A stretch of DNA of 64,000 nucleotides from an uncultured Duncaniella sp. (GTDB lineage Bacteria; Bacteroidota; Bacteroidia; Bacteroidales; Muribaculaceae). Under the pieces are notes generated by a model. The model made no database searches and had not been told where the DNA came from. It saw nothing but the letters and a program-made list of their open reading frames with translations. Of the stretch, positions 11,533 through 50,094 are shown one piece after another (position 1 is the stretch's first letter; every line of letters starts with the position of its first letter). The stretch covers positions 360 through 64,359 of the forward strand of contig CAJUGS010000014.1 in NCBI GenBank assembly GCA_910586305.1, written 5' to 3'. The position numbers and the translations under genes are program-made.

Positions 11533-11543
11533 CCTGAACACCA

Positions 11544-13127: not shown

Positions 13128-13153
13128 AATAGTGGTATATCAAACGAAATAAC

Positions 13154-14674: not shown

Positions 14675-14713
14675 ACCTCAAAACAGCCACTAACACAGAT
14701 ATAACAAAACGAT

Positions 14714-16246: not shown

Positions 16247-16302
16247 CTACACTATATAATAGGTGCAATTAATAAATATCTAAGGTCGTTTTTTAATCGT
16301 AT

Positions 16303-16356
16303 CCTCTGTCCGTGTCAGCGACAGAACCGGAGGCTGACACGGTCAGAGGATTTTTC
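16303..16356 (+). terminator. Intrinsic-terminator-like hairpin between GH5 and the next GH43
   Basis: cctctgtccgtgtcagc (16303-16319) pairs with gctgacacggtcagagg (16333-16349): 17 bp with one central mismatch and a 13-nt loop, followed by aTTTTT (16350-16355). Confidence 0.6.
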
Positions 16357-16368
16357 ATACTATTCGCC

Positions 16369-17799
16369 ATGAATAAAGCAGTTCACCGCCACATAACGGC
16401 AACAGCCATCGGTCTGACAATCGCTGCCACAGCCTGGGCACAGCGTCCGATAGTGCAGACCAATTTCACTCCCGATCCGGCTCCGATGGTCTACAATGAT
16501 ACCTTCTATATCTATACCGGCCATGATGAGGACGGCCGCCACGATGAATTCGTAATGAATGAGTGGAGAGTATATTCATCAAAAGACATGGTTAACTGGA
16601 CCGACCACGGCTCTCCGATGTCCCTTGACACCTTCAGCTGGGCCGAATGGGGCGCCTGGGCCTCACAATGTATCGAGCGCAACGGTAGATTCTACTGGTA
16701 TGTATGCTGCGTGGACAGCAACACTCACGACATGGCTATAGGCGTGGCCGTAGCCGACAGTCCAACAGGACCATTCACCGACGCTATAGGAGCGCCCCTT
16801 GTCAGTGATCCGGGCGGCTATATTGACCCTACAGTCTTCATCGAACCTGACGGAAACGCCTGGCTCTACTGGGGAAACCCCGGCCTGTGGTGCTGCAAAC
16901 TGAACCACGACATGATATCCTATGATAAAAATTTTACCATCAGCGGAAATCATGCCGAAAAAGTCAAGGATGGCGTCTACAAATTCATTCAGACCGAAGA
17001 TTCCTTCGGCGGACCGGAGAAACTTGCCGAAGGCACTGCCTTCACTGATTACAAAGACCTCTACGAAGAAGGGCCCTGGTTCTACAAACGCAACGGCAGC
17101 TACATTCTCGCCTATGCCGCAGGCGGAGTTCCGGAACACATATCGTATTCGGTAAGCGACTCCCCCTGGGGACCGTGGAAATACGCCGGACAGATCATGC
17201 CCCTTCAGGAAATGGGCTCATTCACCAACCATTGCGGAATAGCCGACTTCAAAGGACGGCACTATTTCGCCTATCACTGCGGCACTCTTCCCGGCGGCAG
17301 CGGTTTCAACCGGTCTACGGCGATCGAACAGTTTGAATACAATCCTGACGGCTCTCTCCCGATAATCCTTCCCACGACCAAAGGCCCGGACCCGGTCGGC
17401 ACACTCAACCCTTACTCCCGCGTCGAAGCCGAGACTATAGCCTGGTCAGAAGGTCTGAAGACTGAGCCGAACGCAAAGACAGGCATCTATGTTTCCGACA
17501 TACACAATGGTGACTATCTTCAGGTGCGCGAAGTTGATTTCGGCAAAAAATCGCCCTCGCGGCTGACTGTCTCGGTGGCAAGCGCACTCCGGGGAGGAAC
17601 ACTCAACGTCTACTCCGGCGGCACAGACGGGCAACTCATTGCCTCGGTCAAAGTCCCACCGACCGGCGGCTGGGAAGAATGGAAATCCGTGACTGTGCCA
17701 GTAACCGCTCCTGTCACCGGCATCCATGACCTCACCTTCGCCTTCAGCGGCCGGAAAGGCTGCAAGCTTTTCAATTTCGATTTCTGGAAATTCGACTGA
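16369..17799 (+). CDS. GH43 glycoside hydrolase with C-terminal CBM6-like module
   Basis: Start moved to ATG 16369 (MNKAVHRH...AWAQ signal peptide) because the ORF-track GTG start at 16312 lies inside the terminator hairpin. GH43 motifs FTPDPAPMVYND, IDPTVFIEPDG, YEEGPWFYKRNG. The CBM6-like tail ends in FNFDFWKF. Confidence 0.85.
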   Translation: MNKAVHRHITATAIGLTIAATAWAQRPIVQTNFTPDPAPMVYNDTFYIYTGHDEDGRHDEFVMNEWRVYSSKDMVNWTDHGSPMSLDTFSWAEWGAWASQCIERNGRFYWYVCCVDSNTHDMAIGVAVADSPTGPFTDAIGAPLVSDPGGYIDPTVFIEPDGNAWLYWGNPGLWCCKLNHDMISYDKNFTISGNHAEKVKDGVYKFIQTEDSFGGPEKLAEGTAFTDYKDLYEEGPWFYKRNGSYILAYAAGGVPEHISYSVSDSPWGPWKYAGQIMPLQEMGSFTNHCGIADFKGRHYFAYHCGTLPGGSGFNRSTAIEQFEYNPDGSLPIILPTTKGPDPVGTLNPYSRVEAETIAWSEGLKTEPNAKTGIYVSDIHNGDYLQVREVDFGKKSPSRLTVSVASALRGGTLNVYSGGTDGQLIASVKVPPTGGWEEWKSVTVPVTAPVTGIHDLTFAFSGRKGCKLFNFDFWKFD

Positions 17800-17822
17800 T
17801 CCATAACACCCGCACAGAAACA

Positions 17823-19919: not shown

Positions 19920-19936
19920 TCCAACCCGAAACAATT

Positions 19937-19970
19937 ATGAACAGAATAATCATATGAACAGAATAATCAG
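19937..19970 (+). repeat. 17-bp tandem duplication spanning the start codon of the next gene
   Basis: atgaacagaataatca at 19937-19952 is repeated at 19954-19969. Copy 1 encodes the mini-ORF MNRIII-stop (19937-19957), which overlaps the real ATG at 19954. Confidence 0.9.
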
Positions 19971-21483
19971 CACAGCCATCTCCATTATCAGCATTCTGTC
20001 ATGGGCTACGGCAGCCAGAGTTTCCGCAGCCCCGGCAGTAGAGCAGTGGAAAATATTCGAACTCTCATTCCGGCAGAAAGCCGGACAGCATCCGTTTGAC
20101 AACATCGACTCCGGATGCACCTTCATCAACGGCTGCGACACCGTAAAAGTCAGCGCATTCTATGACGGCAACGACACATATAAAATCCGCTTCATGCCCC
20201 ACAAGCCCGGCCGGTGGACCTACCGCACTTCCGGAAACAGTCCGAAATCGAATCTGCGGGGCAGTTTCGATTGCCTCCCGGCATCACCCGGAAACCACGG
20301 TCCTGTCAGAGTCAACTCGCTCGGATTCGCCTACTCCGACGGAACCGCCTACATCCCCGTGGGTACTACCTGCTACGCATGGACACATCAGCCCGACAGC
20401 CTCATACAGCTGACACTCGAAACCCTCCGCAACAGCTGTTTCAACAAAATCCGAATGTGCATATTCCCCAAAAGCTACGACTGGAACCGCAACGAACCGA
20501 TTCTATACCCTTTCGAAGGTGAGACCGGCAGCTGGGATTTCAACCGTCTCAACCCCGCCTATTTCAGAAATATCGAACAGTGCATCGCCTCGCTTGACAG
20601 CCTCGGCATCGAAGCCGATCTGATTGTCTATCATCCCTATGACCGCTGGGGCTTCAGCAAACTCGACAGGGAAACCAGAGACCGCTACATGCAATATGTC
20701 ATCTCCCGCTTCAGCGCATTCAAAAACGTCTGGTGGAGCATGGCCAACGAATATGACTTCATGGATGCCTATACTGAACAGGATTGGAAATACCATCTTG
20801 AATTTTTTGCTGACAATGACCCGTATGACCATTTGAGAAGTATCCACAACGGGGTGAAACTTTATGACCACAGCGACCCGAATGTGACCCATGTAAGTAT
20901 TCAGGCACCCGATACCGACAATGCCGGCAACCTGTGTCGCACATATTGCAAACCGGTCATATATGATGAGTGTCGTTATGAGGGCAACATTCCTTGGGTG
21001 TGGGGCACACTGTCAGGTGAAGAAATGGTTCAGAAGTTCTGGAGCGGTTTTCTTTCGGGCGGATTTGTCGGACACGGCGAGGTGTTGCTGACCGACAGTT
21101 CGGTGGCTCCTGAAAAGTCTGATGAGGTCCTCTGGTGGTCAAAGGGGGGAACACTCCGCGGCAAGAGCCACGAACCCATCAGGTTTCTAAAGAAAATTCT
21201 TGAAAAGTCTCCTGAAGGGGCAAAGCCTGTAAAAGGTATTACCGGATGGCAGAATTATCCCACCCTCGGGTGTGATGACAAATGGTTTCTGGTATACACA
21301 GGTCGAGACATCCATCGCCAGATGGTGCTTGAACTTCCCGACGATTCGGATTATGAAATCTCTTTGATTGATACCTGGAACATGAATGTCATTCCGGTCG
21401 AAGGTCGATTCCGCGGCCGGTCTATAGTTCCGATAAAGGAACTGCCCTATATGGCCATCATCATAACCGCTGTCACCAACTGA
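19954..21483 (+). CDS. DUF5060/DUF4038-type putative glycoside hydrolase (clan GH-A-like, GH140-related fold)
   Basis: Start set at ATG 19954 (MNRIISTAISIISILSWATA signal). N-terminal Ig-like module (WKIFELSF...YKIRFMPHKPGRWTY), then a TIM-barrel-like part (NKIRMCIFPKSY...WWSMANEYD). The family assignment is from memory. Confidence 0.6.
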   Translation: MNRIISTAISIISILSWATAARVSAAPAVEQWKIFELSFRQKAGQHPFDNIDSGCTFINGCDTVKVSAFYDGNDTYKIRFMPHKPGRWTYRTSGNSPKSNLRGSFDCLPASPGNHGPVRVNSLGFAYSDGTAYIPVGTTCYAWTHQPDSLIQLTLETLRNSCFNKIRMCIFPKSYDWNRNEPILYPFEGETGSWDFNRLNPAYFRNIEQCIASLDSLGIEADLIVYHPYDRWGFSKLDRETRDRYMQYVISRFSAFKNVWWSMANEYDFMDAYTEQDWKYHLEFFADNDPYDHLRSIHNGVKLYDHSDPNVTHVSIQAPDTDNAGNLCRTYCKPVIYDECRYEGNIPWVWGTLSGEEMVQKFWSGFLSGGFVGHGEVLLTDSSVAPEKSDEVLWWSKGGTLRGKSHEPIRFLKKILEKSPEGAKPVKGITGWQNYPTLGCDDKWFLVYTGRDIHRQMVLELPDDSDYEISLIDTWNMNVIPVEGRFRGRSIVPIKELPYMAIIITAVTN

Positions 21484-26120: not shown

Positions 26121-27983
26121 TCAGTGTTTTTTTGTTCCGGCAAACTGTATGGTGTTGCTGTTAAACATTCTTTCTTCGATATATTTTCTCTCTGGTGCTA
26201 TGCATCCCTTGAGATATTTCTCCATCACGAGCGATCCGATCGGTACTCCGAACGTGGCTCCGAAACCGGCGTTCTCCACATAGACGGCTATTGCGATTTT
26301 CGGGTCATGATAGGGGGCGAATCCCATGAAGGCCGAGTGGTCACGTCCGTGTGGGTTCTGTGCCGTACCAGTCTTTCCACACACCTCAATGTCCGGAAGG
26401 TTGGCCAGGCGGCAAGTACCGCCGGTCACAGCCATACGCATTCCCTCGGCAATGTCGTTATACCAGTGGGAAGCTATGGACGGGTGGTGTACTTCGAGAT
26501 ATTCGGCCGGGAGCACCGTATCCTGTATCTCCTTGACTACATGGGGCGTCACATAGTGTCCGCGGTTGGCTATGGTGGCCGAGAGATTGGCTATCTGTAG
26601 TGGAGTGGCGAGAATCTCTCCCTGCCCGATTGAAATGGATATGATGGTATTAGCACTCCAGTGGCCGTCGCCATACCACTTGTTGTAGAAATCCACATTG
26701 GGGATGAATCCTCGGTATTCGCCGGGAAGGTCTACTCCGAGCTTGTAGCCGTAGCCCATCGACACCATATGCTTTTTCCAGATGTCGAAAGCAGCTGCCG
26801 ACGAGCCGTATTTACCCCTCTTGTCGATCATTGCCTTGAAACCCCAGCAGAAGTAGGCGTTGCACGATGTCTGTAAGGCCGGTTTGAGCGGTAGGGGAGA
26901 GCCATGACCGTGGCATCCCACTCTGAGTCCGCCAGAGATGAAGCCATGGTAGCAAGGGAACATTGTGCCTGTGGTGATTATACCCTCTTCAAGAAGTATG
27001 AGACCCTGTGTGGGCTTGAAGGTCGATCCTGGAGGATATGTGGCCTGGATGGCGCGGTTGAAGAGGGGCTTGTCGGGGTCCTTCATCAACTTGTTGTAGT
27101 TGGTGCCGCGCTCTCGACCTATCAGCAGGGATGGATCGTAGGATGGAGCCGATACCAGGCAGAGTATCTCTCCTGTAGCAGGTTCGATAGCCACCACCGC
27201 ACCTTTTTTATTCATCATCAGTGATTCGGCATACTGCTGGAGCTCTATGTTGAGGCTGAGTTTTACGTTGCGTCCGGCCACGGCATCGCGGTCGAGTGCG
27301 CCTTCCTCATATCGTCCTTGTATTCGTCCGAGTGCGTCGCGCATCAGCACTTCCACTCCTTTCTGTCCTCTCAGCTGCTCTTCATAGGTGTGTTCGATAC
27401 CTATGTCGCCTATGTAGTCACCAGGCCTGTAGTAGAGGTCGCGGTCGATATCCTTCTGCGACACTTCGCGTATATTGCCCAGCACATTGGCTGCTGCTTT
27501 GTAGTTGTATTCGCGCAATATCCTTTTCTGGATATAGAATCCCGGAAAACGATACAGTTTTTCCTGTAATCGGCCATAGTCTTCGGCTGTGAGGTGGGTG
27601 AGGAGCCGTTGGGGCGAATATGTGGAGTAGGCCGGATTCTTGCGTCTGTCTCGGATGTCGGCAAACCTTTTCACCAATTCATCGCGGGTGATTCCTACGG
27701 CATTGCAGAAATCAATGGTGTCGAATTCGGCTACGTCGCGCGGGATTATCATCACGTCGTAGGCCGGCTGGTTGTACACCACCAGTCTTCCGTCACGGTC
27801 ATAGATGATGCCTCGCGAGGGAAACACCGCCTTGCGAAGGAAGGCATTGGAATCGGCATATTCCTTGTATTTGGAGTCGGCTACCTGGAGATTGAAAAGC
27901 CTGACAAGGTATATGAGGACAATAACTGTGATAAAACCACCGATTACGTAGCGACGGCGGGCGAGATTATAGTCTTTTCTCAC
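26121..27983 (-). CDS. mrdA: Penicillin-binding protein 2 (elongasome transpeptidase)
   Basis: 620 aa, N-terminal TM anchor. Transpeptidase motifs STFK (PPGSTFKP), SCN, KTG (GKTGTAQ). Confidence 0.92.
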   Translation of the reverse strand: MRKDYNLARRRYVIGGFITVIVLIYLVRLFNLQVADSKYKEYADSNAFLRKAVFPSRGIIYDRDGRLVVYNQPAYDVMIIPRDVAEFDTIDFCNAVGITRDELVKRFADIRDRRKNPAYSTYSPQRLLTHLTAEDYGRLQEKLYRFPGFYIQKRILREYNYKAAANVLGNIREVSQKDIDRDLYYRPGDYIGDIGIEHTYEEQLRGQKGVEVLMRDALGRIQGRYEEGALDRDAVAGRNVKLSLNIELQQYAESLMMNKKGAVVAIEPATGEILCLVSAPSYDPSLLIGRERGTNYNKLMKDPDKPLFNRAIQATYPPGSTFKPTQGLILLEEGIITTGTMFPCYHGFISGGLRVGCHGHGSPLPLKPALQTSCNAYFCWGFKAMIDKRGKYGSSAAAFDIWKKHMVSMGYGYKLGVDLPGEYRGFIPNVDFYNKWYGDGHWSANTIISISIGQGEILATPLQIANLSATIANRGHYVTPHVVKEIQDTVLPAEYLEVHHPSIASHWYNDIAEGMRMAVTGGTCRLANLPDIEVCGKTGTAQNPHGRDHSAFMGFAPYHDPKIAIAVYVENAGFGATFGVPIGSLVMEKYLKGCIAPERKYIEERMFNSNTIQFAGTKKH

Positions 27984-38977: not shown

Positions 38978-40399
38978 ATGAAGACATTTTTCTTAGCAGT
39001 CGCGGCACTGCTCTTCGGATTGTCTCAGGCTTCGGCCTACGACACAGCTTCAAAAGCTTGGAATGAGATATATCCGGCCATCGAGAGTCAGATAAAGGCT
39101 CCGGAATTTCGCGATAAGGACTATCGTCTGCTCGACTATGGCAAGCGTTCGTCGACAGAGGGATTTCTATACACCGAGATGATTAACAGCCTCATCGAAC
39201 GTTGTTCCTCCGAAGGCGGAGGCCGAGTGGTGATACCGCGTGGCACATGGTTCACCGGTCCGATTACTCTCAAAAGCAATGTCAACCTGCATCTCGAGGA
39301 GGGTGCCACCCTTCTGTTTACCTCCGATTTAAATGAATATCCCATCGTCTATACTCACTGGGAGGGAGTGAAGTGCTACAACTACCAGCCTATGATTTAT
39401 GCCTTCGAGCAGGAGAATATTGCTGTTACCGGCAAAGGCACTATCGACGGAGGTGCTTCGCGCGACAATTGGTGGGCCATGTGTGGTGCTCCTCGTTTCG
39501 GTTGGAAGGAAGGAATTGTGTCGCAGCGCATAGGCCGTCCGCTGCTTCTCGAATGGAATGAGAAAGGTGTGCCTGTGGAGCAGAGACGTCTCGGCGATGG
39601 CTACGGTATGCGTGTGCAGCTTCTCAATCCTGTTGGTTGCCGCAATGTACTCATCGAGGGTGTCACCATGTTGCGTTCGCCGTTTTGGGTCATTCACCCT
39701 GTCCTCTGTGAGAACCTCACAGTCAGGAACGTCCATGTTCAGAATGACGGCCCCAACGGAGACGGATGTGACCCGGAGTCGTGCAAGAACGTTCTTATTG
39801 AGGGATGTTACTTCGATACTGGTGACGACTGTATAGCCATCAAGAGCGGGCGAAACCGCGACGGTCGTCTCGCCAACGTCCCCACCGAGAATGTAATCGT
39901 GCGCAACTGCAAGATGAAAAACGGTCATGGCGGAGTCGTTGTCGGAAGTGAGATTGCCGGAGGTTACAAATATCTCTTTGTGGAGAACTGCGACATGGAT
40001 TCCCCCGAACTCGAGAGGGTGATACGCATCAAGACTAATGATTGTCGTGGAGGTGTGATTGAGAATATCTTTGTGCGCAATGTCCGTGTGGGACGCTGCA
40101 AGGAGGCTGTTCTCAAGATTAATCTCCAGTATGACCGCAAGGAAGCCTGCAACCATATCTATCCACCTATTGTTCAGAATGTATTCCTTGAAAACGTCAC
40201 CTGTCATGAGAGCAAATACGGCATCATGATGGTGGGTTATGAAAACATCTGCAATATACGTAACGTAGAGCTTAAAAACTGCGACTTCACTGGTGTGACA
40301 TCAGGTGGAAACTATCTGTCCGGTCTCGCCGAAGGTGTCAATCTCGTCAACGTTCGCATTAATGGAGCCCCTTGCACCTCGCTCACTTCTGAAAAGTAG
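38978..40399 (+). CDS. GH28 glycoside hydrolase (exo-/endo-polygalacturonase-like)
   Basis: Signal peptide. GH28 motif set NDGPNGDGCDP, DTGDDCIAIKSG, GHGGVVVGSE, RIKT. A TAACTTTG box lies at 38939-38946 upstream. Confidence 0.88.
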   Translation: MKTFFLAVAALLFGLSQASAYDTASKAWNEIYPAIESQIKAPEFRDKDYRLLDYGKRSSTEGFLYTEMINSLIERCSSEGGGRVVIPRGTWFTGPITLKSNVNLHLEEGATLLFTSDLNEYPIVYTHWEGVKCYNYQPMIYAFEQENIAVTGKGTIDGGASRDNWWAMCGAPRFGWKEGIVSQRIGRPLLLEWNEKGVPVEQRRLGDGYGMRVQLLNPVGCRNVLIEGVTMLRSPFWVIHPVLCENLTVRNVHVQNDGPNGDGCDPESCKNVLIEGCYFDTGDDCIAIKSGRNRDGRLANVPTENVIVRNCKMKNGHGGVVVGSEIAGGYKYLFVENCDMDSPELERVIRIKTNDCRGGVIENIFVRNVRVGRCKEAVLKINLQYDRKEACNHIYPPIVQNVFLENVTCHESKYGIMMVGYENICNIRNVELKNCDFTGVTSGGNYLSGLAEGVNLVNVRINGAPCTSLTSEK

Positions 40400-40493: not shown

Positions 40494-41933
40494 TTATTCC
40501 GGATGTTCCTCGGCGTAAGCGGTGTCGGGATGTATGCCGGTACCGTCAAAGCAGTGGGTACAGATGCGACACTTGGGCAGGCCGATTGACTCGACGAGAT
40601 CCTCGATTTTGCTGAACTTCAGTGTCGATAGTCCGAGTCTGTGCGCCACTTCGGCCACCATACGTTCGTAGCGGGGTGAGCCTGTGGTGGCATACTCGTC
40701 GAGATGTGCGTTTTCGTCACCCTCGAAATCCTTGATGATCTGGCGTGTGATGAGTTCCATATCGCTCTTTGACGATGTGAAACCGATGAAGGGGCATCCG
40801 TAGACAAGTGGCGGACATGAGATGCGGGCGTGTACGGTGTTGGCGCCGCATTCAAAGAAGGTGCGCACATTGTCGCGGAGCTGTGTGCCTCTCACGATTG
40901 AGTCATCGCAGAAAACCACGCTCTTGCCGTTGAGCACAGCCTTGTTGGGAATGAGCTTCATCTTAGCCACAAGATCGCGACGCGACTGGTTGCCGGGTGT
41001 GAAGCTGCGTGGCCATGTCGGAGTGTACTTAAGCACAGCGCGACGGTAGGGGATACCGCTTCCTTCGGCATAGCCGAGTGCATGGCCTACGCCGGAGTCG
41101 GGAATACCGCACACGCAGTCTGCGTCAGTCGGGTCTTCTTTGCCCATTGCGCGTCCGCCTGCCTCACGCACGTCCTCTACGTTGATACCAAGATAATCGC
41201 TGGCGGGGAAACCATAGTATACCCACAGGAAGGAGCAGAATTGCTCTCTATTGCCGGGAGTGCGGAGCACCTCCATCGAGTCGGCACGGAGTCTCACCAC
41301 TTCGCCGGGGCCGAGGTCCCTCACCACCTTGTAGTCGAGATTGGGGAATGCGCAGGTCTCGCTTGTTGCTGCATATGCTCCATCCTTGTGGCCGATTACG
41401 ATTGGTGTACGGCCCATATAGTCGCGGGCGGCTATGATGCCGTCCTCGGTGAGTATGAGCATTGAGCATGAGCCCTTGACCTTGCGATAGACAAGATCGA
41501 TACCCTCTTCGAAAGTCTTTCCCATGTTAATGAGAAGTGCCACAACCTCGGTCTGGTTGATATTGTTGGCCGAGAGTTCGCTCAGGTGCATACGTTCGGC
41601 GAGAAGCTCGGCGGCGATTTCGCGAAGATTGTTAATCTTGGCTACTGTCACCACTGCGTAACGTCCTAAGTGTGAGTTGACGATGATGGGTTGGGGGTCG
41701 GTGTCGCTGATCACTCCGAGACCCTGGTTGCCGTGGAAAGAGTCGAGTTCGTCCTCGAATTTCGAACGGAAATAGTCACGCTCAAGTGAGTGAATCTTGC
41801 GATTGAAGCCCTTCTCAGGGTCGAAGGTCACAAGTCCGGCACGTTTTGTGCCGAGATGGGAATTGTAGTCTGTGCCATAGAACAGATCTGTTATGCACGG
41901 ACGGGCCGAGACGGTGCCAAAAAAACCTCCCAT
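40494..41933 (-). CDS. Amidophosphoribosyltransferase-like protein (PurF-like) without the N-terminal catalytic Cys
   Basis: PRPP-binding loop VVFCDDSIVRGTQL and a class-II GATase-like N-domain, but the N-terminus is MGGFFGT rather than MCG. Start set at ATG 41933, because the 37 upstream codons of the ORF contain a TACCTTTG promoter box. Confidence 0.75.
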   Translation of the reverse strand: MGGFFGTVSARPCITDLFYGTDYNSHLGTKRAGLVTFDPEKGFNRKIHSLERDYFRSKFEDELDSFHGNQGLGVISDTDPQPIIVNSHLGRYAVVTVAKINNLREIAAELLAERMHLSELSANNINQTEVVALLINMGKTFEEGIDLVYRKVKGSCSMLILTEDGIIAARDYMGRTPIVIGHKDGAYAATSETCAFPNLDYKVVRDLGPGEVVRLRADSMEVLRTPGNREQFCSFLWVYYGFPASDYLGINVEDVREAGGRAMGKEDPTDADCVCGIPDSGVGHALGYAEGSGIPYRRAVLKYTPTWPRSFTPGNQSRRDLVAKMKLIPNKAVLNGKSVVFCDDSIVRGTQLRDNVRTFFECGANTVHARISCPPLVYGCPFIGFTSSKSDMELITRQIIKDFEGDENAHLDEYATTGSPRYERMVAEVAHRLGLSTLKFSKIEDLVESIGLPKCRICTHCFDGTGIHPDTAYAEEHPE

Positions 41934-41979
41934 AATTCGTTTGTAAGATGTGTATGACTGGTTTTGAAATTTGAAAGTG

Positions 41980-41987
41980 CAAAGGTA
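41980..41987 (-). promoter_or_regulatory. -7 box (TACCTTTG) for the PurF-like gene
   Basis: The reverse complement of caaaggta matches TAnnTTTG, ~47 nt upstream of ATG 41933. It separates this gene transcriptionally from the operon upstream. Confidence 0.4.
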
Positions 41988-42055
41988 GTAAAAATCCCTA
42001 AACTGAGAAAGAACGTGTTCTCTCTGTTGCTTATTTTTTTTCAAAACGTTGTGGC

Positions 42056-45000
42056 TCAGTTCACCACTGAATCGAGGTCGAGCTTACGCAGAGTGAGTAT
42101 AGTGAGGATGTCGGGATTCCGGCTTTCCGTCGTGACAGGGATATACGGGAAGAATGGAGTGAGAAACCGCCTCCAGCGGTCGGTGTCATCAGCTGTCACC
42201 GAGGCAAGGACAAAGCGGCATTCAGCAGAGTTGTCGTTGGCTATGTGGCGTGTGGCCACGTTGCTCATGCGGTTGAGACTCATGAACGTTTCTTGTGGCG
42301 TGGGTTGGGCAAGGTATGGATAGTGGATTCGCCCGGTGAGGTAGTTGACAATGTTGAAATCCTTGAAAATCTCGCATAGACTGTCGCGCACGGTTGACTC
42401 GATGATTTCGCGCGGATCATCGGCCTCTTCCGAGGAGGCGTAAGAGGCAAATAGCTTGGTGAGATCTATACGGCTCACTATGCACGGTGCCGAGTTGTCA
42501 AAGAAAGCCTCGAGCGCAGCCGGATTGGTAAGGCTCACGAACATTGCCTCATTGAATGCATCAATTGACTCCGACCTGGCTGTGGCCTCGTCATACCACT
42601 CGGAAAGCATGGAGTTGTAGTCGGCCAGACGGCGGTAGAGGGCGTCGAGCTTCATATTGGCTTCGTGGAGTGAATCGATAACCATACCGGCTGTGTGGAA
42701 ACGCAGCTGTGTTTCAAGCAGCATCCTGCGTTGCAAGGATATTTGAGCTGCGATTTCCTCCATCTCACTCTGCAAATCATGCCGGTGGTTGCGGCAGGCT
42801 GTGCGGTAGTACAGCCACACCATCACCGTTATAAAAATGATAGCTCCGGCCACAATGCTCGTCCATAGGGTGTCGAGTGTGAATACCTCCAGGGAGACGA
42901 GAAGTATGAATATGCCGAGGGCTATTACCGATGCTCCGCTCCAGACCAGGGCGCGGCTGAGATACGTCTTGCGGAATAGCTTGAGCCGTTCCGGGAAGGC
43001 GTTCATTAGTTTGCGGTGGCGTGCCTCGAGATTGGATATGCTTTCCTGCTGTCTTTCTTCGGACAGACATCTCAGTTCGTCGCGCACATTGGGAAGACAT
43101 AGCCGCTCGATGAGATGGCGATAGTAGCGGTAGTTGGTCTCGTATAGCTTAGTCAGGCTTTCGAGTCTCACCCGCGCTTCGTCAAGAGTGTTGGATATGG
43201 CCGCGATTTTTATCTGGGTTTCTGTTCCGGCAAACGGTGCTGTCAGTTGAGGCACACGTCCTCCTTTCTGGCCTTCGGGTGCTTGCTCGGTAGTCTGTGT
43301 GATTATACAGGCAAAGTTGTTGAATTCCGGGTCGTCCACGTAGGCCGATGAGATGTAGCAGTAACCCTTGTCGCCAAAGTCTTTGCCCCAGGAGTTGCGC
43401 ACGATATAGCACTTGTCGATTTCCGAATAGCCTGTTATTACCATTGCGTGGTATCCTTCCTCGCCTTCGGCTATCTCGCTCTCGGTGGGTCGGCCCACAT
43501 GGCCGTCTGGAGTGTGGGGGAAGGATGGATATACCTTGAGAGAGAACCCCACCGGATAGCCTTCTGACAGGGCGGAGGTGAGCAGCCTGTGGTTGGTCTC
43601 GATGCATTCCATCCTGCTTCCCTCGGTCATGAGTGGTATTTGGCAGGCTTTGAGCACTCTGTGGCCTTCGGCTTCCGAGGTAGCGGCGGCCGAGGGTGGC
43701 ACGGATATATTTTCCGGAGAATAGGGACACAGTTCCTCGGTGCATATGCCGAGTCGTCCCATCACGGAGAGCTGCTCGTAGAAGTTGCTCCCTCCTTCGG
43801 GGCGCCCGGACATAACGTTGCTGTGATAGAAGAGAAATCTCTCGCTCAGTGATGCTTCCGGGCTATTGCTGCTTTCGGAGTGGAGGCGGTTGATGATGTA
43901 TTCATACATCGCTGTCGTTGCAAACGATGAGCAGGATCCGACACTACCCTGGCTTCTGACGGCCGAGAAGTAGCGTCGCAGGTCAACGGACGGGAGTATC
44001 TTGAGATCCGGGGCGGGTGTGTATTTAGCATCGAGTGGTTGCTCGCGTATTTCGAAATTGCCGGGGCGGTGGTGTATCTCCTCGCGACGGCGTGAGGCCT
44101 CCTCGTTGTTAAGATTTTTGCGCAACATTTCAAGTTCGGATTCCTTGCCCCTTATATAAGAGGTAAGGTCAAGGATGTCCGACTTGAGGCGTTTTATCTC
44201 TGGAAGCGGGTTGAATGCATGGTTGTTTGCTTCGTCCTCCACATACTCCATGCGCGCCTGGTCATAGTGATAGCGTTTCAGCTCGGGGAAGTTCTGTGGT
44301 GTGGGCAGAAGACCGGTGTACAGTGCGTTGCGATTGAACGAATCGATAAATATCGATGCCGGTTCGGTGTAAGCATCGTCGAAATACAGTGGTTCCTGTT
44401 TGTACAGCATTCCTTTCAGTCGCGGATTGTCGCGGCCAAGAAGAAGTGCCAGCGTTGCTTCACGTTCGGGCAGTGAGAGGGCCGGGTTGTTGACAAACTC
44501 TGTGATTCGGTCCGTGAGTGCCCGGGTGCTGCGTTGTAGAGCCGGGTAAATCTGTCCGGCTATGTCGCTTTCGGACAGTTTGCGCTCATATAGCGGGCTC
44601 ACTTCGCTGTTGTAGAAGTCGTTGTAGAATCCCTCGATTCCGTTCAGCGCGTTCATAGCCCGTTCGGCTGCGCCCTGAGTGTCGACAGTGGTCTGTGTGA
44701 TTCCGTTTTTCTCAAGGGTCGAGGCCACAGTGCGGTTGAGGAGGTAGTCAGTGATTTCCCATCGGTCAAACCGCAGGCGGGCAAGTCCGATGCTGATGAG
44801 ATTGGAAGATCCGGCCGGGAAGAATCCCGGTGTAATCACTGTCGCATAGTTCTCTGAAAGAGATGCTATTATTGATGCGATGAACTCCGAGAGGCGACGG
44901 AGTGTGAATCCTATCGCCGCACCGGTAGCCACATAGTCGTCAACGAGTGCCAGTGAGCAGTGGAATCTCGACGAGGCTGTGAGGGCGTCGATGGAGCGAA

Positions 45001-45397
45001 TATTCTCCTTCTGTATCTCTCGGCAGTCGGCCGGAAGTTCGTGTCCGAGCAGATGGGCGAGGTTGTATTGCAGCCCTATTATGTCGAGAGAAATAGAGTT
45101 TCCTGTCTGCTCCACAGCCTCGATGATATTCCTGGCCGTTTCAGCAGCCTCCGGCACGAACAACGGTATGATGGCAATGGTGTGGAGAGTTGTGTCGGCC
45201 GAGTCTATCGTGATATGCTCGCGATACATACCCGCCAGGCTCGATGTGAGCCGGTCTGTCGTCAGTCCATCGCAGTCGAGCGGTGTGTAGAGACTTGGTA
45301 ATTGTGGCGTTTTAGCCACGGCAAGACTCACCTCGGTGGAGAGTTGCCCGGTTATGGGCGATGGCCATAGGCCGATGATGGGTGTGGCGGGATGCAT
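42056..45397 (-). CDS. 1113-aa multidomain protein: N-terminal Rossmann-like (possibly degenerate tubulin-like) domain, coiled coil, papain-like C1 cysteine peptidase, coiled coil, TM hairpin, C-terminal domain
   Basis: C1 catalytic set with papain spacing: Q483-G-S-V-G-S-C489 (the Cys codon is 43931-43933), YH650AMVITGY, IVRN668SW670G. Two TM helices at aa ~816-836 and 845-864 (nt 42806-42952). No signal peptide. 13 nt downstream of the tubulin-like gene. Confidence 0.8.
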   Translation of the reverse strand: MHPATPIIGLWPSPITGQLSTEVSLAVAKTPQLPSLYTPLDCDGLTTDRLTSSLAGMYREHITIDSADTTLHTIAIIPLFVPEAAETARNIIEAVEQTGNSISLDIIGLQYNLAHLLGHELPADCREIQKENIRSIDALTASSRFHCSLALVDDYVATGAAIGFTLRRLSEFIASIIASLSENYATVITPGFFPAGSSNLISIGLARLRFDRWEITDYLLNRTVASTLEKNGITQTTVDTQGAAERAMNALNGIEGFYNDFYNSEVSPLYERKLSESDIAGQIYPALQRSTRALTDRITEFVNNPALSLPEREATLALLLGRDNPRLKGMLYKQEPLYFDDAYTEPASIFIDSFNRNALYTGLLPTPQNFPELKRYHYDQARMEYVEDEANNHAFNPLPEIKRLKSDILDLTSYIRGKESELEMLRKNLNNEEASRRREEIHHRPGNFEIREQPLDAKYTPAPDLKILPSVDLRRYFSAVRSQGSVGSCSSFATTAMYEYIINRLHSESSNSPEASLSERFLFYHSNVMSGRPEGGSNFYEQLSVMGRLGICTEELCPYSPENISVPPSAAATSEAEGHRVLKACQIPLMTEGSRMECIETNHRLLTSALSEGYPVGFSLKVYPSFPHTPDGHVGRPTESEIAEGEEGYHAMVITGYSEIDKCYIVRNSWGKDFGDKGYCYISSAYVDDPEFNNFACIITQTTEQAPEGQKGGRVPQLTAPFAGTETQIKIAAISNTLDEARVRLESLTKLYETNYRYYRHLIERLCLPNVRDELRCLSEERQQESISNLEARHRKLMNAFPERLKLFRKTYLSRALVWSGASVIALGIFILLVSLEVFTLDTLWTSIVAGAIIFITVMVWLYYRTACRNHRHDLQSEMEEIAAQISLQRRMLLETQLRFHTAGMVIDSLHEANMKLDALYRRLADYNSMLSEWYDEATARSESIDAFNEAMFVSLTNPAALEAFFDNSAPCIVSRIDLTKLFASYASSEEADDPREIIESTVRDSLCEIFKDFNIVNYLTGRIHYPYLAQPTPQETFMSLNRMSNVATRHIANDNSAECRFVLASVTADDTDRWRRFLTPFFPYIPVTTESRNPDILTILTLRKLDLDSVVN

Positions 45398-45410: not shown

Positions 45411-48194
45411 TCAGAATTCGTCGGTGATGTAGTTCATTTCTTCATTGAGAATGTCGGCGGTCGCCTTGAGACGCGGATCCTCAAGCTGCTCGATGGTGTA
45501 TTGGCAGCCTGAGAAGTCGGTGAGGTATGTCCCGTCGTCCACTGAGGCCTTGGCCCGGCGCAGACGGTCGAGCATTGTGGTGTCTTCGCCAGGCATACCC
45601 ACTTTGTCGCGCTCTTTTTCTATTTCGGGAGCGATAATGTCAAGATTGTCAATTAATGTAGAGAGCGCTTCCTCTCGGCTTGCACCGAGTTGGACGCGGT
45701 AGCCGTTGAGAGGTTTGCCGCCCATGGCCCGGCTGCGTATTATATAGGCCTCCTTGCTCGGATCGCGCACGATGATGCCAGCAACGATGGCAAATGTCCA
45801 CAGGGCAATGACCTTGGAGCGTGAGATGTCGTCGTGTGGCTCAAGGTCGAAGCGTTCACGTTTCATACGTCTGGCCATCTCGGCATCGAAGTGGCTGGTA
45901 AACTCCTTGTCTTCTTCAAAACGGTTGTATTCCAGAATATAGTTGTCAAGGGAGGTCAGCGTGAAAGCGGGCACAACGCCTATCTGGCGGTAGATGATGA
46001 TGCGGTCGCTTATACCTGTGGTGGAGTAGTCAACCGAGCTGGAACCGGGAAGTATGTTGCGCAGGTGGTCGCGACGCGAGATGCGCGATTTTGCCTTGTC
46101 GGCCACACCGACATAGAAGTTGTCGACAGGACGGTCTTTGATGTCCGAGTCGTAGCCACGGTAGCTGTAGGTGAAGAGAGGCATGGCCTTGCTGACCGCG
46201 CGGTGGCACAGACGGTCGAAACTGTCATCGTCCATTGCGTCGATAACCTGGTCGATGGTGGTGTTCTTGAGTTCTTTTACCTTGGGTAGTGTGGAGGCGA
46301 AGTCGTTGAACAAACGCGATGTCTCGGCAGCCGACATGGTCGAAATTGTCTGTATGCCACCGTCGGTAGACATGAACTTGATGAAGTCGTTGAACACAAT
46401 GTCCTGGGCCGGACAGGTGATTTTCTCGGCTTCCGGACCGGTGAGGTCTACCTGGAAGAGGTTGGAGTTGCCGATGTTGAGAAGCTTGCGCTCTATGGTG
46501 CGTCCACACTCCTCGTCGACGGCATGGAGGTTGGAGAGGATGATGTTGACGCGGTCAAACGACTGACCTATGCGGGTGCGTAGCCAGTAGTAGAAGTCAC
46601 GGGCCATCTGTCGGCGTGTGATTTCGCGCCGGGTTCTGGCCACTGTCATGGTTCGGTCACACACCTCGGCTGAAAGCTCTCTGCGCTTGCCTCCCGAGAA
46701 TATGCCTCGTGTCTCCGACAGTTCTTTGCAGGTGCTTTCGAGCGAGCTTTCCTGGCGTGGAAGCAGTTCTTCCAGTCCCTTCATCTCAGTGTGCATCTCT
46801 CCGTCACACAGCTCTATCTGTGTCAGTATGGCCTTGAGTATATGTTCGCACAGGTATATGCCGCATTCGCGGTTGGACTGCTCCTTCATGAAGTCGGAAA
46901 GGGCTATGTCCACACGGCTTTTGAGTGCGTTGAGTTTTTCAATGAGCGACTCGGGACTTTCTGTGGCAATATTGGCGAGGAAGTGGTCCACCTCCACCTT
47001 GGGATTTTCCGGACTTTCGATTTCCGAGAGTGACCTTGGGGAGGCTGCTGGCATGAAATAGTCGATTACGTCGTCTTTTTCGAGGTTCTCGCGTATGCGT
47101 GTGTTGGTGAACCAGTTGTTGGCAAGCACCGATGGATCGTCACATCCGCCGTTGCGCATACGGTTGATAATCTGGCGTATGGCTTTCAGTGTGTATATTT
47201 CGCTGAGTGTATGGCTGCTGAAGAGAATCTCCGATACGCCGAATCCGGCTGCCCATGCTTTTTTGTTGCGGATATCCATGGTGCCGTCGTTAATCTGCTT
47301 GGCCACGTTGTCGCTCACAGACGCAGTGGCTACGCTCAGTTCGCCGGTGGAGGTTACGAGCGCCAGAGATATCATCTCGCACAACTGGTCGACGTTGGAG
47401 AACATATCGTTGTTCTCGTTGCGGTTGTCAATGAAATAGAAGGCTGTGAACGGACGTTCGCGCACCATCTCGGTCGAACGTAGCCACTTCAGTTCCACCG
47501 GCAGAGAGCCTGGTCCCAGATGCATCAGGAAGTCGAGGTCGCGTATTGCACCCATGGCATTGGGGCGTACACGTGCCATTCCTGCACCGTGCATCATGGC
47601 TCTGAACACGTCGGCCATCACGGCATAGCCCGAGAGTTTGGCTTCCGGAAGTATTCGCTTGATGAGGTAGGCCATGTTGAGGAAAGTGCCACACCCTGTG
47701 CCTCCGCCGAGCGAGAACACAAGGTGTACTTCCACTTCGTTGGAGAGAAGTCCGTAGCGTGGATTGTCGATGATGGCTGCCGAGTTGATCTGGCGCAGTT
47801 TTGATGATAGTGAGTTCACCACGTCATCCTCGCGTATGGTGACGGCAAAGCGGCCGTTCGTTCGTATCGCCCCTGCTCCGATATTCAGCGATGTCAGCGC
47901 GGCTGTATTGCAGGCCGGAATCCAGCCGAAGTTGCCGGGGGTGCGCAGATAGATGGCCGATGGCGAATTTACGGATATGGGAAGTTGCTCCGACGACGAG
48001 AGGGTGATGGGTGTTCCGTCTTTGGCGGGAAGTGATTTGTTGTACACGCCTCCGTCGGTGTCAATACCGAGAAATCCCAGCATTGGAGGTATTTCTCCAT
48101 AGGTGTCATAGAGTATCTTCTTGGTGTGGAGGAGTGCGTTCATGCCTGTGCCGCCAAGGCCGATGAAGAGAGTGCGTCTGAGTTTGGTAGCCAT
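45411..48194 (-). CDS. Divergent tubulin/FtsZ-superfamily GTPase (Tubulin_2-like), 927 aa
   Basis: T1 GLGGTGMNA (aa 12-20). T3 GAGAIRTNGR (aa 106-115), with the same spacing as FtsZ GAGANPEVGR. T4/tubulin signature GGGTGCG (aa 163-169, nt 47688-47708). A long, uncharacterised C-terminal ~600 aa follows. Confidence 0.8.
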   Translation of the reverse strand: MATKLRRTLFIGLGGTGMNALLHTKKILYDTYGEIPPMLGFLGIDTDGGVYNKSLPAKDGTPITLSSSEQLPISVNSPSAIYLRTPGNFGWIPACNTAALTSLNIGAGAIRTNGRFAVTIREDDVVNSLSSKLRQINSAAIIDNPRYGLLSNEVEVHLVFSLGGGTGCGTFLNMAYLIKRILPEAKLSGYAVMADVFRAMMHGAGMARVRPNAMGAIRDLDFLMHLGPGSLPVELKWLRSTEMVRERPFTAFYFIDNRNENNDMFSNVDQLCEMISLALVTSTGELSVATASVSDNVAKQINDGTMDIRNKKAWAAGFGVSEILFSSHTLSEIYTLKAIRQIINRMRNGGCDDPSVLANNWFTNTRIRENLEKDDVIDYFMPAASPRSLSEIESPENPKVEVDHFLANIATESPESLIEKLNALKSRVDIALSDFMKEQSNRECGIYLCEHILKAILTQIELCDGEMHTEMKGLEELLPRQESSLESTCKELSETRGIFSGGKRRELSAEVCDRTMTVARTRREITRRQMARDFYYWLRTRIGQSFDRVNIILSNLHAVDEECGRTIERKLLNIGNSNLFQVDLTGPEAEKITCPAQDIVFNDFIKFMSTDGGIQTISTMSAAETSRLFNDFASTLPKVKELKNTTIDQVIDAMDDDSFDRLCHRAVSKAMPLFTYSYRGYDSDIKDRPVDNFYVGVADKAKSRISRRDHLRNILPGSSSVDYSTTGISDRIIIYRQIGVVPAFTLTSLDNYILEYNRFEEDKEFTSHFDAEMARRMKRERFDLEPHDDISRSKVIALWTFAIVAGIIVRDPSKEAYIIRSRAMGGKPLNGYRVQLGASREEALSTLIDNLDIIAPEIEKERDKVGMPGEDTTMLDRLRRAKASVDDGTYLTDFSGCQYTIEQLEDPRLKATADILNEEMNYITDEF

Positions 48195-48233: not shown

Positions 48234-50048
48234 TTAGACTGAAAGATAGGTCTTGTCTCCGGTGTTGATATTTGTGAGAGTGTATTCATTTCCCTTTTCG
48301 AGGCGAGCCGTGGGTGCGATGTCCCAGATTGAATTACGTGTCATTCTGGCTGCATTGCGGGCAGGGAGTAGTTCGATGGCAGGTGTGAAGTGGTCGGCGC
48401 GGATATATATTATCCTGCCTGTGAATATGCGACTGAAAATGTTCTGGCTCTCTCTGCGGGAAGTCAGCACTGCTTTTCTGGCCCCGCGAAGCCGCTTTGT
48501 GGCAAAGTAGCTTCCGGGTCCTTGCATCTGTATGGTGAGTGACTTGAAAGTGGGGTATACCATTCTTTTAATAAACAGAAACCACAGTATCAGTGCGGAC
48601 AGCAACACTATGCCAATCCATACCAGCAGGGTCTTCAGCGGGTTCCAGTCGACACTGTATGTGGTGCGGAAGGGTAGTTCGCTCACAGCCCCTATGCTCA
48701 CACCATTCAGCATTTCAATATCGCGACTGTCGCGGTTGACGAGACTGAAATACCTCTTGCCGGTTTCTGCATCGGTGTCAAATGTGATGCCCAGCCGGGC
48801 TTCCTTTCCGGGCTCGACGATGAATGTCTCTCCCGGTCCAACAGGCTGTCCGTTGAAGCTGACTTTGAAGTCGGAGGAGTCGCCGTTGGCCGGCACGACC
48901 GCGAGGACAGCCATTGGGTGGTCGTTGTCTGTGTTGGTGAATTTCGCAGCTAGGTCTATCACTATTTCTTCCTGGGGCGCGGCATCGCTCCACAGAAAAG
49001 CCGGATACCATTCGGCACCAGGTTTCACAATAACCTCGTCGGTGTCGCCACCGAGCAGTGACAGTTTGCGCAGGGCGCGGTTGGCCATGATTACTGTAAC
49101 CTCGGGATTGACTATCGTCATGTGCGGGTCCTTGGAGTTGACTGTGAATGTGAACTCATACATCCCGTCTTCATCGGTCTCCTCAGCGAGGCGGTTGTTA
49201 AGCTCTTCCACCGAGATGTCTCCACGTGGAGAGAATCTCACATTAATATTATAGTCGGAGCTTTTGCCTCCCTCCACGCTGACGTTGAAAAAACGGTCGG
49301 CACATTTTGCCTCTACAGGATAGGGTTCCTTCTCGCTGAATCCAATACTATATGTCTTGTTGAGTTCGAGTGTGTTTGCATATATCACGTTGCCAATGTC
49401 GGATATGGTCGGTATCTCTCCATCCGTACATTTGATACTGTAGGCGTCCGAACATCCGGCCAATGCTTCGTCAAGAGCAGGATCGGAGGCCACCCCATCG
49501 AGCATCACGTAGAAAAACTGTGTGTTTTTATGGGCTGCACACCACTCTCTGATGAGACGGCACACGGCTGGCGTGCCGTGTACCTCGTCCTTGCCATCGG
49601 TGAGAAGGTATACGCGGTTGTCCATGGCCGGATTGACATTTCTCATGCCGGCCTTGAAGGCCTCATAGATATTTGTCTTGGAGTGGGGTGTAGAGATGAT
49701 TTTGTCGAGTCGCTCGAGAATTCCGGCCCTTTTCTTTTCATATTCGCTTCCGTCGAAAACGATTTCATTGAATGGATTGTCCTGGAACGGGACTATGACA
49801 AATCGGCTCTCCGGGTCATGGCTCTGGCGTGTCACAGTTCTGTCAAGAGCATTCTTGGCCGGTTCCCACATATTAATTTCCGGACTCTTCATGGAAGCCG
49901 TGCAGTCAAATATATATATGTAGTTGCGCTGCCTCTGGGCCGAAACGGTGACGCTGCTGAAAACGAGCAGAAAGAGTGTCGCTAAAATCACAGAGGTGTA
50001 CTGTCGGGCGCATGATGTGCGCCATACGGGGAAATGTGATATCATCAT
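48234..50048 (-). CDS. Exported von Willebrand factor A (MIDAS) protein with a C-terminal TM anchor and ~110-aa cytoplasmic tail
   Basis: Signal/anchor VILATLFLLVFSSVTVSAQ. MIDAS D63-C-T-A-S67 (nt 49893-49907), T140, LLTD166G. Beta-rich middle region. TM LLVWIGIVLLSALILWFLFI (nt 48570-48635) followed by KR-rich residues. Residue numbers count from the ORF-track start at 50093. The start is probably ATG 50048 (MMISHF...), because the upstream codons are AT-rich and contain a TATATTTG box. Confidence 0.8.
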   Translation of the reverse strand: MMISHFPVWRTSCARQYTSVILATLFLLVFSSVTVSAQRQRNYIYIFDCTASMKSPEINMWEPAKNALDRTVTRQSHDPESRFVIVPFQDNPFNEIVFDGSEYEKKRAGILERLDKIISTPHSKTNIYEAFKAGMRNVNPAMDNRVYLLTDGKDEVHGTPAVCRLIREWCAAHKNTQFFYVMLDGVASDPALDEALAGCSDAYSIKCTDGEIPTISDIGNVIYANTLELNKTYSIGFSEKEPYPVEAKCADRFFNVSVEGGKSSDYNINVRFSPRGDISVEELNNRLAEETDEDGMYEFTFTVNSKDPHMTIVNPEVTVIMANRALRKLSLLGGDTDEVIVKPGAEWYPAFLWSDAAPQEEIVIDLAAKFTNTDNDHPMAVLAVVPANGDSSDFKVSFNGQPVGPGETFIVEPGKEARLGITFDTDAETGKRYFSLVNRDSRDIEMLNGVSIGAVSELPFRTTYSVDWNPLKTLLVWIGIVLLSALILWFLFIKRMVYPTFKSLTIQMQGPGSYFATKRLRGARKAVLTSRRESQNIFSRIFTGRIIYIRADHFTPAIELLPARNAARMTRNSIWDIAPTARLEKGNEYTLTNINTGDKTYLSV

Positions 50049-50062
50049 TAAGGATTTATTCG

Positions 50063-50094
50063 CAAATATAAACATTATAATTGGATTGCACAAG
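50063..50094 (-). promoter_or_regulatory. Candidate promoter of the vWA/tubulin-like/protease operon
   Basis: The reverse complement of caaatata (50063-50070) is TATATTTG, which matches TAnnTTTG. The -33 element is only partial (cTTG, 50091-50094). It would give a very short 5' UTR before ATG 50048. Confidence 0.35.

Follow-up and report, generated by a model that had tools for sequence, protein, structure and literature searches.

A papain-type protease domain carried by a putative FtsZl1 paralogue in a three-gene cassette of Bacteroidales

We have analyzed a stretch of 64,000 nucleotides from an uncultured Duncaniella sp. (contig CAJUGS010000014.1, called here the window), in which an open reading frame (ORF) on the minus strand with an ATG start, 42056..45397 including the stop codon, encodes a protein of 1113 aa that carries a papain-type cysteine protease in its middle. 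The gene beside it codes for a tubulin-like GTPase of the FtsZl1 family. The locus raises the question of what a papain-fold enzyme is doing inside such a large host protein, next to a GTPase of the tubulin superfamily, and where the rest of the host protein comes from. The original prediction, made from the letters of the window, was that the protease faces the cytoplasm and that, together with a transmembrane hairpin, it was inserted into a degenerate paralogue of the neighbouring GTPase. We find it largely shown that the protein is an FtsZl1 paralogue without the GTP-binding loops and that the protease block was inserted at the turn between two long stalk helices. An FtsZl1-derived protease carrier of this kind, with a single stalk-turn insertion made of protease plus hairpin, mapped insertion boundaries and a protease predicted to be cytoplasmic, appears to be new in the literature that we searched.

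The protease domain and its membrane setting

The Pfam profile Peptidase_C1 (PF00112) matched aa 470–685 with E 2.9e-16 and 60.7 bits, against a cut-off of 20.7, over profile positions 4–205 of 220. The complete domain (C1A, xylellain-type) was delimited as aa 470–700, at 43298..43990 on the minus strand, as are all the features of this gene. The motif QGSVGSC, from aa 483, provides Q483 and C489 with the Q-x5-C spacing of papain, while YHAMVITGY (from aa 649) provides H650, and IVRNSWG (from aa 665) N668 and W670, at the positions where the original prediction had placed them. The catalytic codons are 43931-43933 (C489), 43448-43450 (H650) and 43394-43396 (N668). All five residues were invariant in 11 of 11 close homologues and in 110 of 110 members of the family set, which comprises the full-length representatives of clusters at 50% identity, down to an overall identity of 22%. 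The best solved relative was the Xylella enzyme xylellain (3ois, E 2.3e-20 over aa 456–693), with the Cys, His and Asn blocks aligned, and a total of 41 C1 chains of the PDB matched the domain at E≤0.01. The match is therefore far above chance and, to judge by its sequence, this is a catalytically intact papain-type domain under purifying selection.

C1A peptidases are generally described as secreted zymogens, a rule that had been invoked for this protein and that holds for eukaryotes. It does not extend to the prokaryotic short (xylellain-type) and multidomain C1A peptidases, for which intracellular enzymes without signal peptide are on record (PMC10380794). As had been noted, the protein has no I29 prodomain (no Pfam match to Inhibitor_I29 over the 1113 aa), and the structure predicted with AlphaFold2 (AF2) showed a single long helix at aa 397–442, consistent with the coiled coil described upstream of the protease. 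A missing I29 prodomain is normal in a cytoplasmic bacterial C1A peptidase. Since intracellular bacterial enzymes of this type without prodomain were already known, the surprise lies in the host protein and the operon and not in the cytoplasmic location. The query has in common with xylellain the Q/C/H/N/W set, the absence of the I29 prodomain and a conserved D-x-x-Y-x-P segment (aa 456–461), located directly before the catalytic domain and found in the N-terminal extension of xylellain. However, xylellain is a stand-alone enzyme of 291 residues, whereas here the domain is inserted in a membrane-tethered protein of ~1100 aa, in which residues 1–43 of xylellain have no similar counterpart. Besides the catalytic cysteine, C552 (96%), C680 (92%) and C697 (67%) are conserved in the family. 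Similar xylellain-type C1 domains are encoded by the jumbo phages LR756511.1 and LC667451.1 (25–28% identity, E 1e-14 and 2e-8), which fits the published remark that short bacterial C1A peptidases were acquired by large phages.

The gene was delimited from the ORF listing and from its full-length homologues, with identities of 22–47%. A profile of the C-terminal domain matched 248 representatives and, among the best 150 of these 248, all the matches were located at the C-terminus of proteins of ~1100–1250 aa or of fragments. The profile of the N-terminal domain, searched against a set of 5.8 billion proteins, retrieved two fragments only, one of which (P0013) is a frameshifted divergent member. 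Public records label the members of the family merely as "C1 family peptidase", and its wide conservation, with at least 110 full-length cluster representatives that all retain the catalytic residues, appears to be new in the searched literature. In the divergent record L031:1983-5041 (JGI 3300005284) a frameshift falls inside the conserved motif NPLPE[IL]KR, and gene calling divided the member into two overlapping genes, one of 434 aa and the other of at least 599 aa; the frameshift reflects either a sequencing error or a pseudogene.

Regarding the membrane topology, a Kyte-Doolittle scan detected no hydrophobic segment at the N-terminus, and thus no signal peptide. The sole hydrophobic stretch was found at aa 813–868 (42794..42961) and consists of two helices of ~20 residues joined by the uncharged 8-residue loop FTLDTLWT, the arrangement that had been described before. 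Upstream of this hairpin there are 6 Lys/Arg versus 1 Asp/Glu, and the segment RTACRNHRH comes after the second helix. In the family, 94 of the 110 members have a hydrophobic span of 45–70 aa at the same position, and the 15-residue flanks contain 3.5 and 4.5 Lys plus Arg. A linker (aa 720–812, 42962..43240), delimited by sequence, conservation and the boundary scan described below and rich in Lys/Arg beside the membrane, connects protease and hairpin as part of the inserted block. The hairpin is predicted to have both ends in the cytoplasm. The lack of a signal peptide, the 812 residues that precede the first transmembrane helix, the even and conserved number of helices, the Lys/Arg on both flanks, the Val that replaces papain's disulfide-forming Cys22 and the homology of the flanking regions to a cytoplasmic GTPase all argue for a cytoplasmic placement of the protease and of both large portions of the protein, as originally proposed. 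The sequence agrees with this predicted placement and with no other.

Relationship of the flanking regions to FtsZl1

The partner gene (45411..48194, minus strand) codes for an FtsZl1-family GTPase of 927 aa, identified by Pfam (Tubulin_2, PF13809, E 1.4e-42) and by its AF2 model, with intact T1 (GGTG) and T4 (GGGTGCG) loops that are invariant across its relatives. The regions that flank the protease were silent in conventional searches. No matches were found for the C-terminal 248 and the N-terminal 456 residues in Pfam or PDB sequence searches, nor for the flank domains in NCBIfam or PADLOC, and the Tubulin_2/Tubulin profiles gave no match at E≤10 in 10 N-terminal domains and none in the whole protein. 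We then relied on the comparison of profiles with hhalign. An early run with 31 close sequences was too shallow (P 0.6 for the N-terminal and 0.017 for the C-terminal domain), and the signal rose after adding the 110 diverse representatives of the family and FtsZl1 sequences of other phyla, taken from plasmids of Thermaceae, Nostoc and Azospirillum. With the 110 members, aa 870–1103 aligned colinearly with FtsZl1 aa 502–737 (score 30.3, P 0.0044, reached by 0 of 60 block shuffles).

Clear evidence came from an excision carried out in silico, in which aa 446–865 (protease plus hairpin) were deleted and the flanks joined. The joined segments, aa 391–445 and 866–1104, aligned colinearly with FtsZl1 aa 443–738 through the junction, over 266 columns, with a score of 44.6 and P 4e-4. 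Shuffled profiles never reached this value, with 19.4±3.0 and a maximum of 28.7 for blocks of 10 columns (0/80) and 23.2±2.2 for blocks of 30 columns (0/60), and the controls stayed low as well (reversed profile 26.2, vWA family 18.3, excised middle part 21.5). Detectable homology of the flanks to the neighbour had been set beforehand as one test of the original prediction, and the alignment of stalk and C-terminal domain stood above all shuffles. When other stretches of 420 residues were excised, or either boundary was shifted by 25–45 residues, the score dropped to ≤36. Moving the 5' boundary by 14 residues (excision 460–865) gave 42.6, and the optimum was found at 446–865. This sharp optimum indicates that the inserted unit is one block, made up of a linker, the protease, the second linker and the transmembrane hairpin, in agreement with the proposal that protease and hairpin had been inserted together in the paralogue.

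The outgoing stalk helix (aa 391–445, 44063..44227) is a coiled coil, seen in the AF2 model, that corresponds in the hhalign alignment to FtsZl1 aa 443–497, and the return stalk helix with the C-terminal alpha/beta domain (aa 869–1113, 42059..42793) corresponds, by the same two methods, to FtsZl1 ~498–738. The FtsZl1 model has its two longest helices at 445–494 and 498–573, and the insertion site falls on the short GGK break that separates them, which may represent the tip of a coiled-coil hairpin. The membrane hairpin would then anchor the tip of the stalk in the inner membrane, a predicted arrangement that we regard as largely shown. FtsZl1 and the C-terminal domain were also modelled together by AF2, with separate alignment blocks and nine FtsZl1 rows. 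Along the alignment derived from the sequences, the DSSP states of the C-terminal domain and of FtsZl1 were equal at 76% of the positions, whereas shifted registers averaged 44% and reached 59% at most. The domain has 16 strand residues, of which 14 fell on FtsZl1 strands. Homology of the stalk and C-terminal domain to FtsZl1 is thus very likely.

The case of the N-terminal domain (aa 1–330, 44408..45397), characterized with AF2, Foldseek and hhalign, is different. This Rossmann-like alpha/beta region possibly represents the degenerate GTPase domain plus the intermediate region of FtsZl1. Its first 155 residues were modelled as alternating beta and alpha elements with a predicted local distance difference test score (pLDDT) of ~90. 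Foldseek gave nothing at E<1e-3 and a generic list of Rossmann folds that includes FabI/SDR, Rab, EF-Tu and flavodoxin-like proteins, with FtsZ, TubZ and PhuZ at E 6.5e-3 to 2.5e-2. By comparison, the AF2 model of FtsZl1, with similarly weak E-values, had tubulin, CetZ or TubZ in 46 of its 50 top matches. Because of this difference between a generic and a tubulin-dominated list, an inactive tubulin domain is a plausible candidate here. By hhalign, aa 147–303 (block B) aligned to FtsZl1 250–437 with a score of 29.4 that 0 of 60 shuffles reached (z ~2.6), and its secondary structure was equal to that of FtsZl1 at 72% of the positions, versus a maximum of 63% in shifted registers. The segment aa 1–79 was in register with FtsZl1 2–79 (P 0.083) and colinear with block B and with the C-terminal block, and at low stringency the three colinear sub-alignments fused into a single one of 593 columns. 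Two other identities considered for this domain were dropped, a degenerate P-loop (G9-x4-P-I-T16), since G9 is not conserved, and a degenerate vWA with its metal-ion-dependent adhesion site (MIDAS), since vWA structures were missing from the top Foldseek matches.

The loss of the glycine-rich nucleotide loops, on which the idea of an active/inactive pair was based, holds in any mapping, since T1 (GGTG) and T4 (GGGTG[ST]G) are absent from the protein and from the consensus of its family and are intact in the FtsZl1 neighbour. Paralogy over the whole length, with a degenerate GTPase domain at the N-terminus, and with it the inactive half of the pair, is somewhat favoured by these data. The earlier interpretation was in fact partly supported, being right for the C-terminal two thirds of the protein, i.e., for the kinship of stalk and C-terminal domain with the tubulin-like neighbour, and wrong in three of its four residue-level pairings. 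The C-terminal one (ILTILTL with RIIIYRQ) was reproduced by hhalign. Of the N-terminal ones, aa 72–85 with T1, aa 146–165 with T4 and ISIGLARLRFD with NAMGAIRDLDF, none rose above the shuffles in a windowed profile comparison, and for the first of them the score of aa 60–110 against FtsZl1 1–50 was below the mean of the null.

The cassette and FtsZl1 modules of other lineages

At the head of the cassette lies a gene (48234..50093, minus strand) for a vWA membrane protein, recognized from its translation, its hydropathy and a weak Pfam match to VWA_4. It has a signal-peptide-like N-terminus, one transmembrane segment at aa ~483–514 and a conserved cytosolic tail of ~105 aa, and its MIDAS motifs, IYLFDCTxSM and YLLTDG, are conserved. 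The orthologue at locus L034 carries recorded VWA and VWA_2 domains. The MIDAS domain is predicted to be periplasmic, and translation of the gene probably begins close to aa 16 of the ORF as listed. In the FtsZl1 protein, a moderately hydrophobic helix (aa 790–813, window 45756-45827, VIALWTFAIVAGIIV, Kyte-Doolittle 1.63; AF2 helix 792–804) sits in a C-terminal extension, past the region common with the protease-bearing protein, and could be either a buried core helix or a membrane-binding one.

The three genes are on a single strand, separated by gaps of 39 nt and, between FtsZl1 and the C1 gene, 13 nt. A scan with one genome per species found the order vWA, FtsZl1, C1 protein on one strand in 30 of 30 loci, all of them from Bacteroidales with Muribaculaceae predominating. 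We also examined five contigs with divergent members and found the same cassette in four of them, the fifth (L036) being cut upstream, so that the search for this architecture in other genomes, suggested with the original prediction, yielded 30 loci plus four divergent contigs. In two of these four, the vWA protein is divided between separate genes, two of ~300–335 aa in the L033 clade and likewise in L037. An FtsZl1 gene is also found upstream of the frameshifted member of L031. The genes that flank the cassette are not conserved between related genomes, indicating that it behaves as a movable unit.

This kind of gene set, FtsZl1 plus vWA, is already known from comparative genomics. Makarova and Koonin (2010; Biol Direct 5:33; PMC2875224) established the FtsZl1 family by computational analysis and predicted a role of the FtsZl1-vWA operons in membrane remodelling and vesicle biogenesis. 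Their Additional file 5 already tabulates a triplet of Bacteroides caccae, BACCAC_02056 / 02057 (FtsZl1) / 02058, the last listed as "COG4870 cysteine protease" of 1152 aa and left undiscussed in the paper (PMC2875224). Our cassette resembles those operons in the architecture of the GTPase, where a long coiled coil lies between an N-terminal tubulin/FtsZ domain and a domain at the C-terminus, and in the vWA membrane protein with intact MIDAS that precedes it in one operon. It differs in having no OmpA, kinase or P-loop GTPase partner. In a second study, Kaur, Burroughs, Iyer and Aravind (2020; eLife 9:e52696; PMC7159879) described modules of tubulin and extracellular vWA proteins in Firmicutes and Actinobacteria as nucleoside triphosphate (NTP)-dependent conflict systems, i.e., regulated cytoskeleton-like assemblies that control effectors, with two tubulin-domain genes in the Firmicutes tubulin plus vWA versions. 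The likeness to these GAP1-N2 systems lies in the combination of a membrane protein with extracellular vWA and a protein in which a tubulin domain is followed by a C-terminal coiled coil, and the two-tubulin versions of Firmicutes are a precedent for the pair of FtsZl1 paralogues. However, within flanks of ~8 kb we found no GAP1, DO-type P-loop GTPase or FNIII protein, the second "tubulin" copy, which lacks the GTP loops, bears a transmembrane hairpin in addition to a papain-fold peptidase, and the lineage is Bacteroidales and not Firmicutes or Actinobacteria.

We have found further FtsZl1 modules with suggestive neighbours. In three Thermaceae plasmids (L038, L039, L040) the genes for vWA, FtsZl1 and a hypothetical protein of ~680 aa adjoin brxL, which codes for the Lon-like protease BrxL, and the other neighbours vary by plasmid (RecQ or other helicases, DNA methyltransferase, HEPN and WYL genes). 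The module of the Nostoc plasmid pNPUN01 comes after S8, CHAT and caspase genes, and in Azospirillum p2 FtsZl1 is flanked by three caspase-family genes, with OmpA genes also beside the module. In Bacteroidales, a member with 22% identity (L033:11515-13155) has a TIR_2-LRR gene 8 nt past the stop of the C1 gene, on the same strand. It appears that FtsZl1 is repeatedly linked to proteases and defence genes.

The third genes of the Thermaceae plasmids (L038:11703-13742, L039:11719-13779, L040:11728-13761) encode proteins without transmembrane segments and without protease. Their termini resemble those of the protease family, with HPTLLLFFPSxxSLL at the N-terminal side and VVLFRLLYPLAP near the C-terminus. 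Compared with the protease family and with FtsZl1, they gave colinear sub-alignments that were individually non-significant, among them three that were nearly in register with the excised C1 profile (hhalign P 0.08–0.19). On this basis, the Thermaceae protein may be a protease-less orthologue of the protease carrier, i.e., of an adaptor.

Proposed mechanism and its alternatives

Pairs with one active and one inactive partner are known in the tubulin superfamily (alpha/beta-tubulin, BtubA/B), and caspase, CHAT and metacaspase proteins act as effectors of NTPase systems. Both are relevant here as analogies only, the first for the specialization of one partner and the second for a cysteine protease without prodomain placed under NTP-dependent oligomerization. 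In our case the inactive partner is predicted to lack any nucleotide binding, and the protease belongs to clan CA and not to clan CD.

The explanation that we consider the best overall, with about as much confidence as doubt, is that of a protease-carrying pseudo-FtsZl1 that acts as a membrane tether and holds an effector protease controlled by assembly. The pseudo-paralogue would pair with FtsZl1 via the common stalk and C-terminal domain and would tether the GTPase to the inner membrane. As input, the periplasmic vWA domain would bind a ligand, and the signal, passed on through the cytosolic tail, would control the GTP-dependent assembly of FtsZl1. As output, the protease without prodomain would be clustered or unmasked by this assembly and would cleave cytoplasmic or membrane-proximal targets. 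For this gating mechanism, including the pairing, the gating by GTP and the substrates, our doubts slightly exceed our confidence. We infer that the protease, instead of being a digestive enzyme, has the effector role in a threshold system gated by NTP, of the "conflict or stress response" type. The conflict-system reading is preferred here over membrane remodelling on account of the brxL, caspase/CHAT/S8 and TIR-LRR contexts of the FtsZl1 modules.

Several points weigh against this explanation. The topology is based on hydropathy and on the positive-inside rule. The tubulin ancestry of the N-terminal domain is weakly indicated, with no match of a hidden Markov model (HMM) to sequence, a generic Foldseek list and z ~2.6 for block B. 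The HMM-to-sequence search of the flank profiles over all the ORFs of the fetched loci did not retrieve FtsZl1, and the hhalign probability of the best alignment was 35%, calculated without the secondary-structure term and with shallow profiles on the FtsZl1 side. The cassette of Bacteroidales is chromosomal, and in the window it occupies a core-gene region, with a purF-like gene on one side and pta-ackA on the other. Plasmid copies of the N-terminal domain were not found, phages match the peptidase domain only, and PADLOC-DB v2 gave zero families at E≤0.1 for all three cassette proteins. This core-gene setting, together with the absence of plasmid or phage copies of the cassette, makes it less like a typical mobile defence island. 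In the literature searched we found no experiment on any FtsZl1 system.

The failures of the HMM-to-sequence and Pfam searches, the hhalign probability of at most 35%, the lack of signal between the C-terminal domain profile and a three-sequence alignment of Thermaceae FtsZl1, and the largely helical nature of the aligned region could also mean that the flanks are unrelated to FtsZl1, that the similarity reflects coiled-coil composition and that the protein is an ordinary multidomain C1A peptidase in an FtsZl1 operon. We consider this improbable, since shuffles that keep segments of 10 or 30 columns intact never reached the score (0/80, 0/60) and the reversed profile stayed at 26, the globular part that contains beta structure pairs strand on strand (14/16), the three sub-alignments are independent and colinear, and the score has its maximum at a single excision boundary. 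Still more remote is a protease that, like the classical secreted enzymes, is periplasmic or released and cooperates with the vWA domain on substrates outside the cell or in the envelope. Eukaryotic C1A peptidases are secreted and a periplasmic position is predicted for the vWA domain that the first gene encodes, but 812 residues without signal peptide would have to cross the membrane before the first transmembrane helix. The even number of helices, the Lys/Arg-rich flanks on both sides with an uncharged loop between them, the change of Cys22 to Val, the homology of the flanks to a cytoplasmic GTPase and the precedent of intracellular prokaryotic C1A peptidases without signal peptides (PMC10380794) make it highly improbable.

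A housekeeping role requires more consideration, as it keeps the same anatomy. The cassette would be a membrane-remodelling or cytoskeletal machine in which the protease serves for maintenance, with FtsZl1 filaments, the tail of the vWA protein or proteins of the envelope as the targets that it processes or turns over. It would agree with the roles in membrane remodelling and vesicle biogenesis that were predicted in 2010 (PMC2875224), with three proteins that are all membrane-associated or membrane-tethered, with the core metabolic surroundings in the window and with a gene order kept across many Bacteroidales without plasmid or phage copies. However, the flanking genes vary between related genomes, as for a movable unit, FtsZl1 recurrently adjoins caspase, CHAT, BrxL, TIR and other defence genes across phyla, and a link to division or vesicle genes was not seen. 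We rate this alternative as unlikely, if far from negligible.

A wider generalization can be formulated, conceivable although on balance doubtful, in which FtsZl1 systems generally consist of an active tubulin-like GTPase and a degenerate paralogue as effector adaptor. In Bacteroidales, the stalk tip of the adaptor would have acquired a papain-fold protease together with a membrane hairpin, and in Thermaceae the ~680-aa product of the third gene may correspond to this adaptor and cooperate with the neighbouring Lon-like BrxL. Were this true, the cassette would work as a proteolytic switch that derives from the cytoskeleton and is gated by GTP. It would be the tubulin-based equivalent of the platforms that activate caspases, and abundant gut bacteria would use it for defence triggered at the envelope or for programmed arrest. 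The protease carrier would also exemplify a pseudo-enzyme of the tubulin superfamily and the insertion of a domain into a coiled-coil hairpin, and with it clan CA would join clan CD (caspase, CHAT) and the Lon type among the proteases found beside FtsZl1 in other phyla. FtsZl1 is the most divergent branch of the tubulin/FtsZ superfamily and, in the searched literature, no function has been shown experimentally since 2010. The cassette is a compact three-gene version, with a relative in the cultivated Bacteroides caccae and an enzymatic read-out that depends on a single catalytic cysteine, and an FtsZl1-paralogue carrier with an insertion at the stalk tip provides a structural hypothesis about binding partner, membrane position and output.

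The surroundings of the cassette in the window have the ordinary core content of Bacteroidales. The purF-like ORF (40494-42044, minus strand), directly downstream of the C1 gene, matches GATase_7, and its listed TTG start lies 12 nt past the C1 stop. The N-terminus of this ORF is likely MGGFFG, in place of the Met-Cys of class II amidotransferases, its start codon being uncertain. Further away, GH28 (38978-40399) and PBP2-type transpeptidase (26121-27983) genes were found, and a polysaccharide-utilisation locus on the plus strand (2659-21483) that comprises a hybrid two-component regulator of 1332 aa, a SusC-like TonB receptor, a SusD-like protein, a GH43 and further ORFs.

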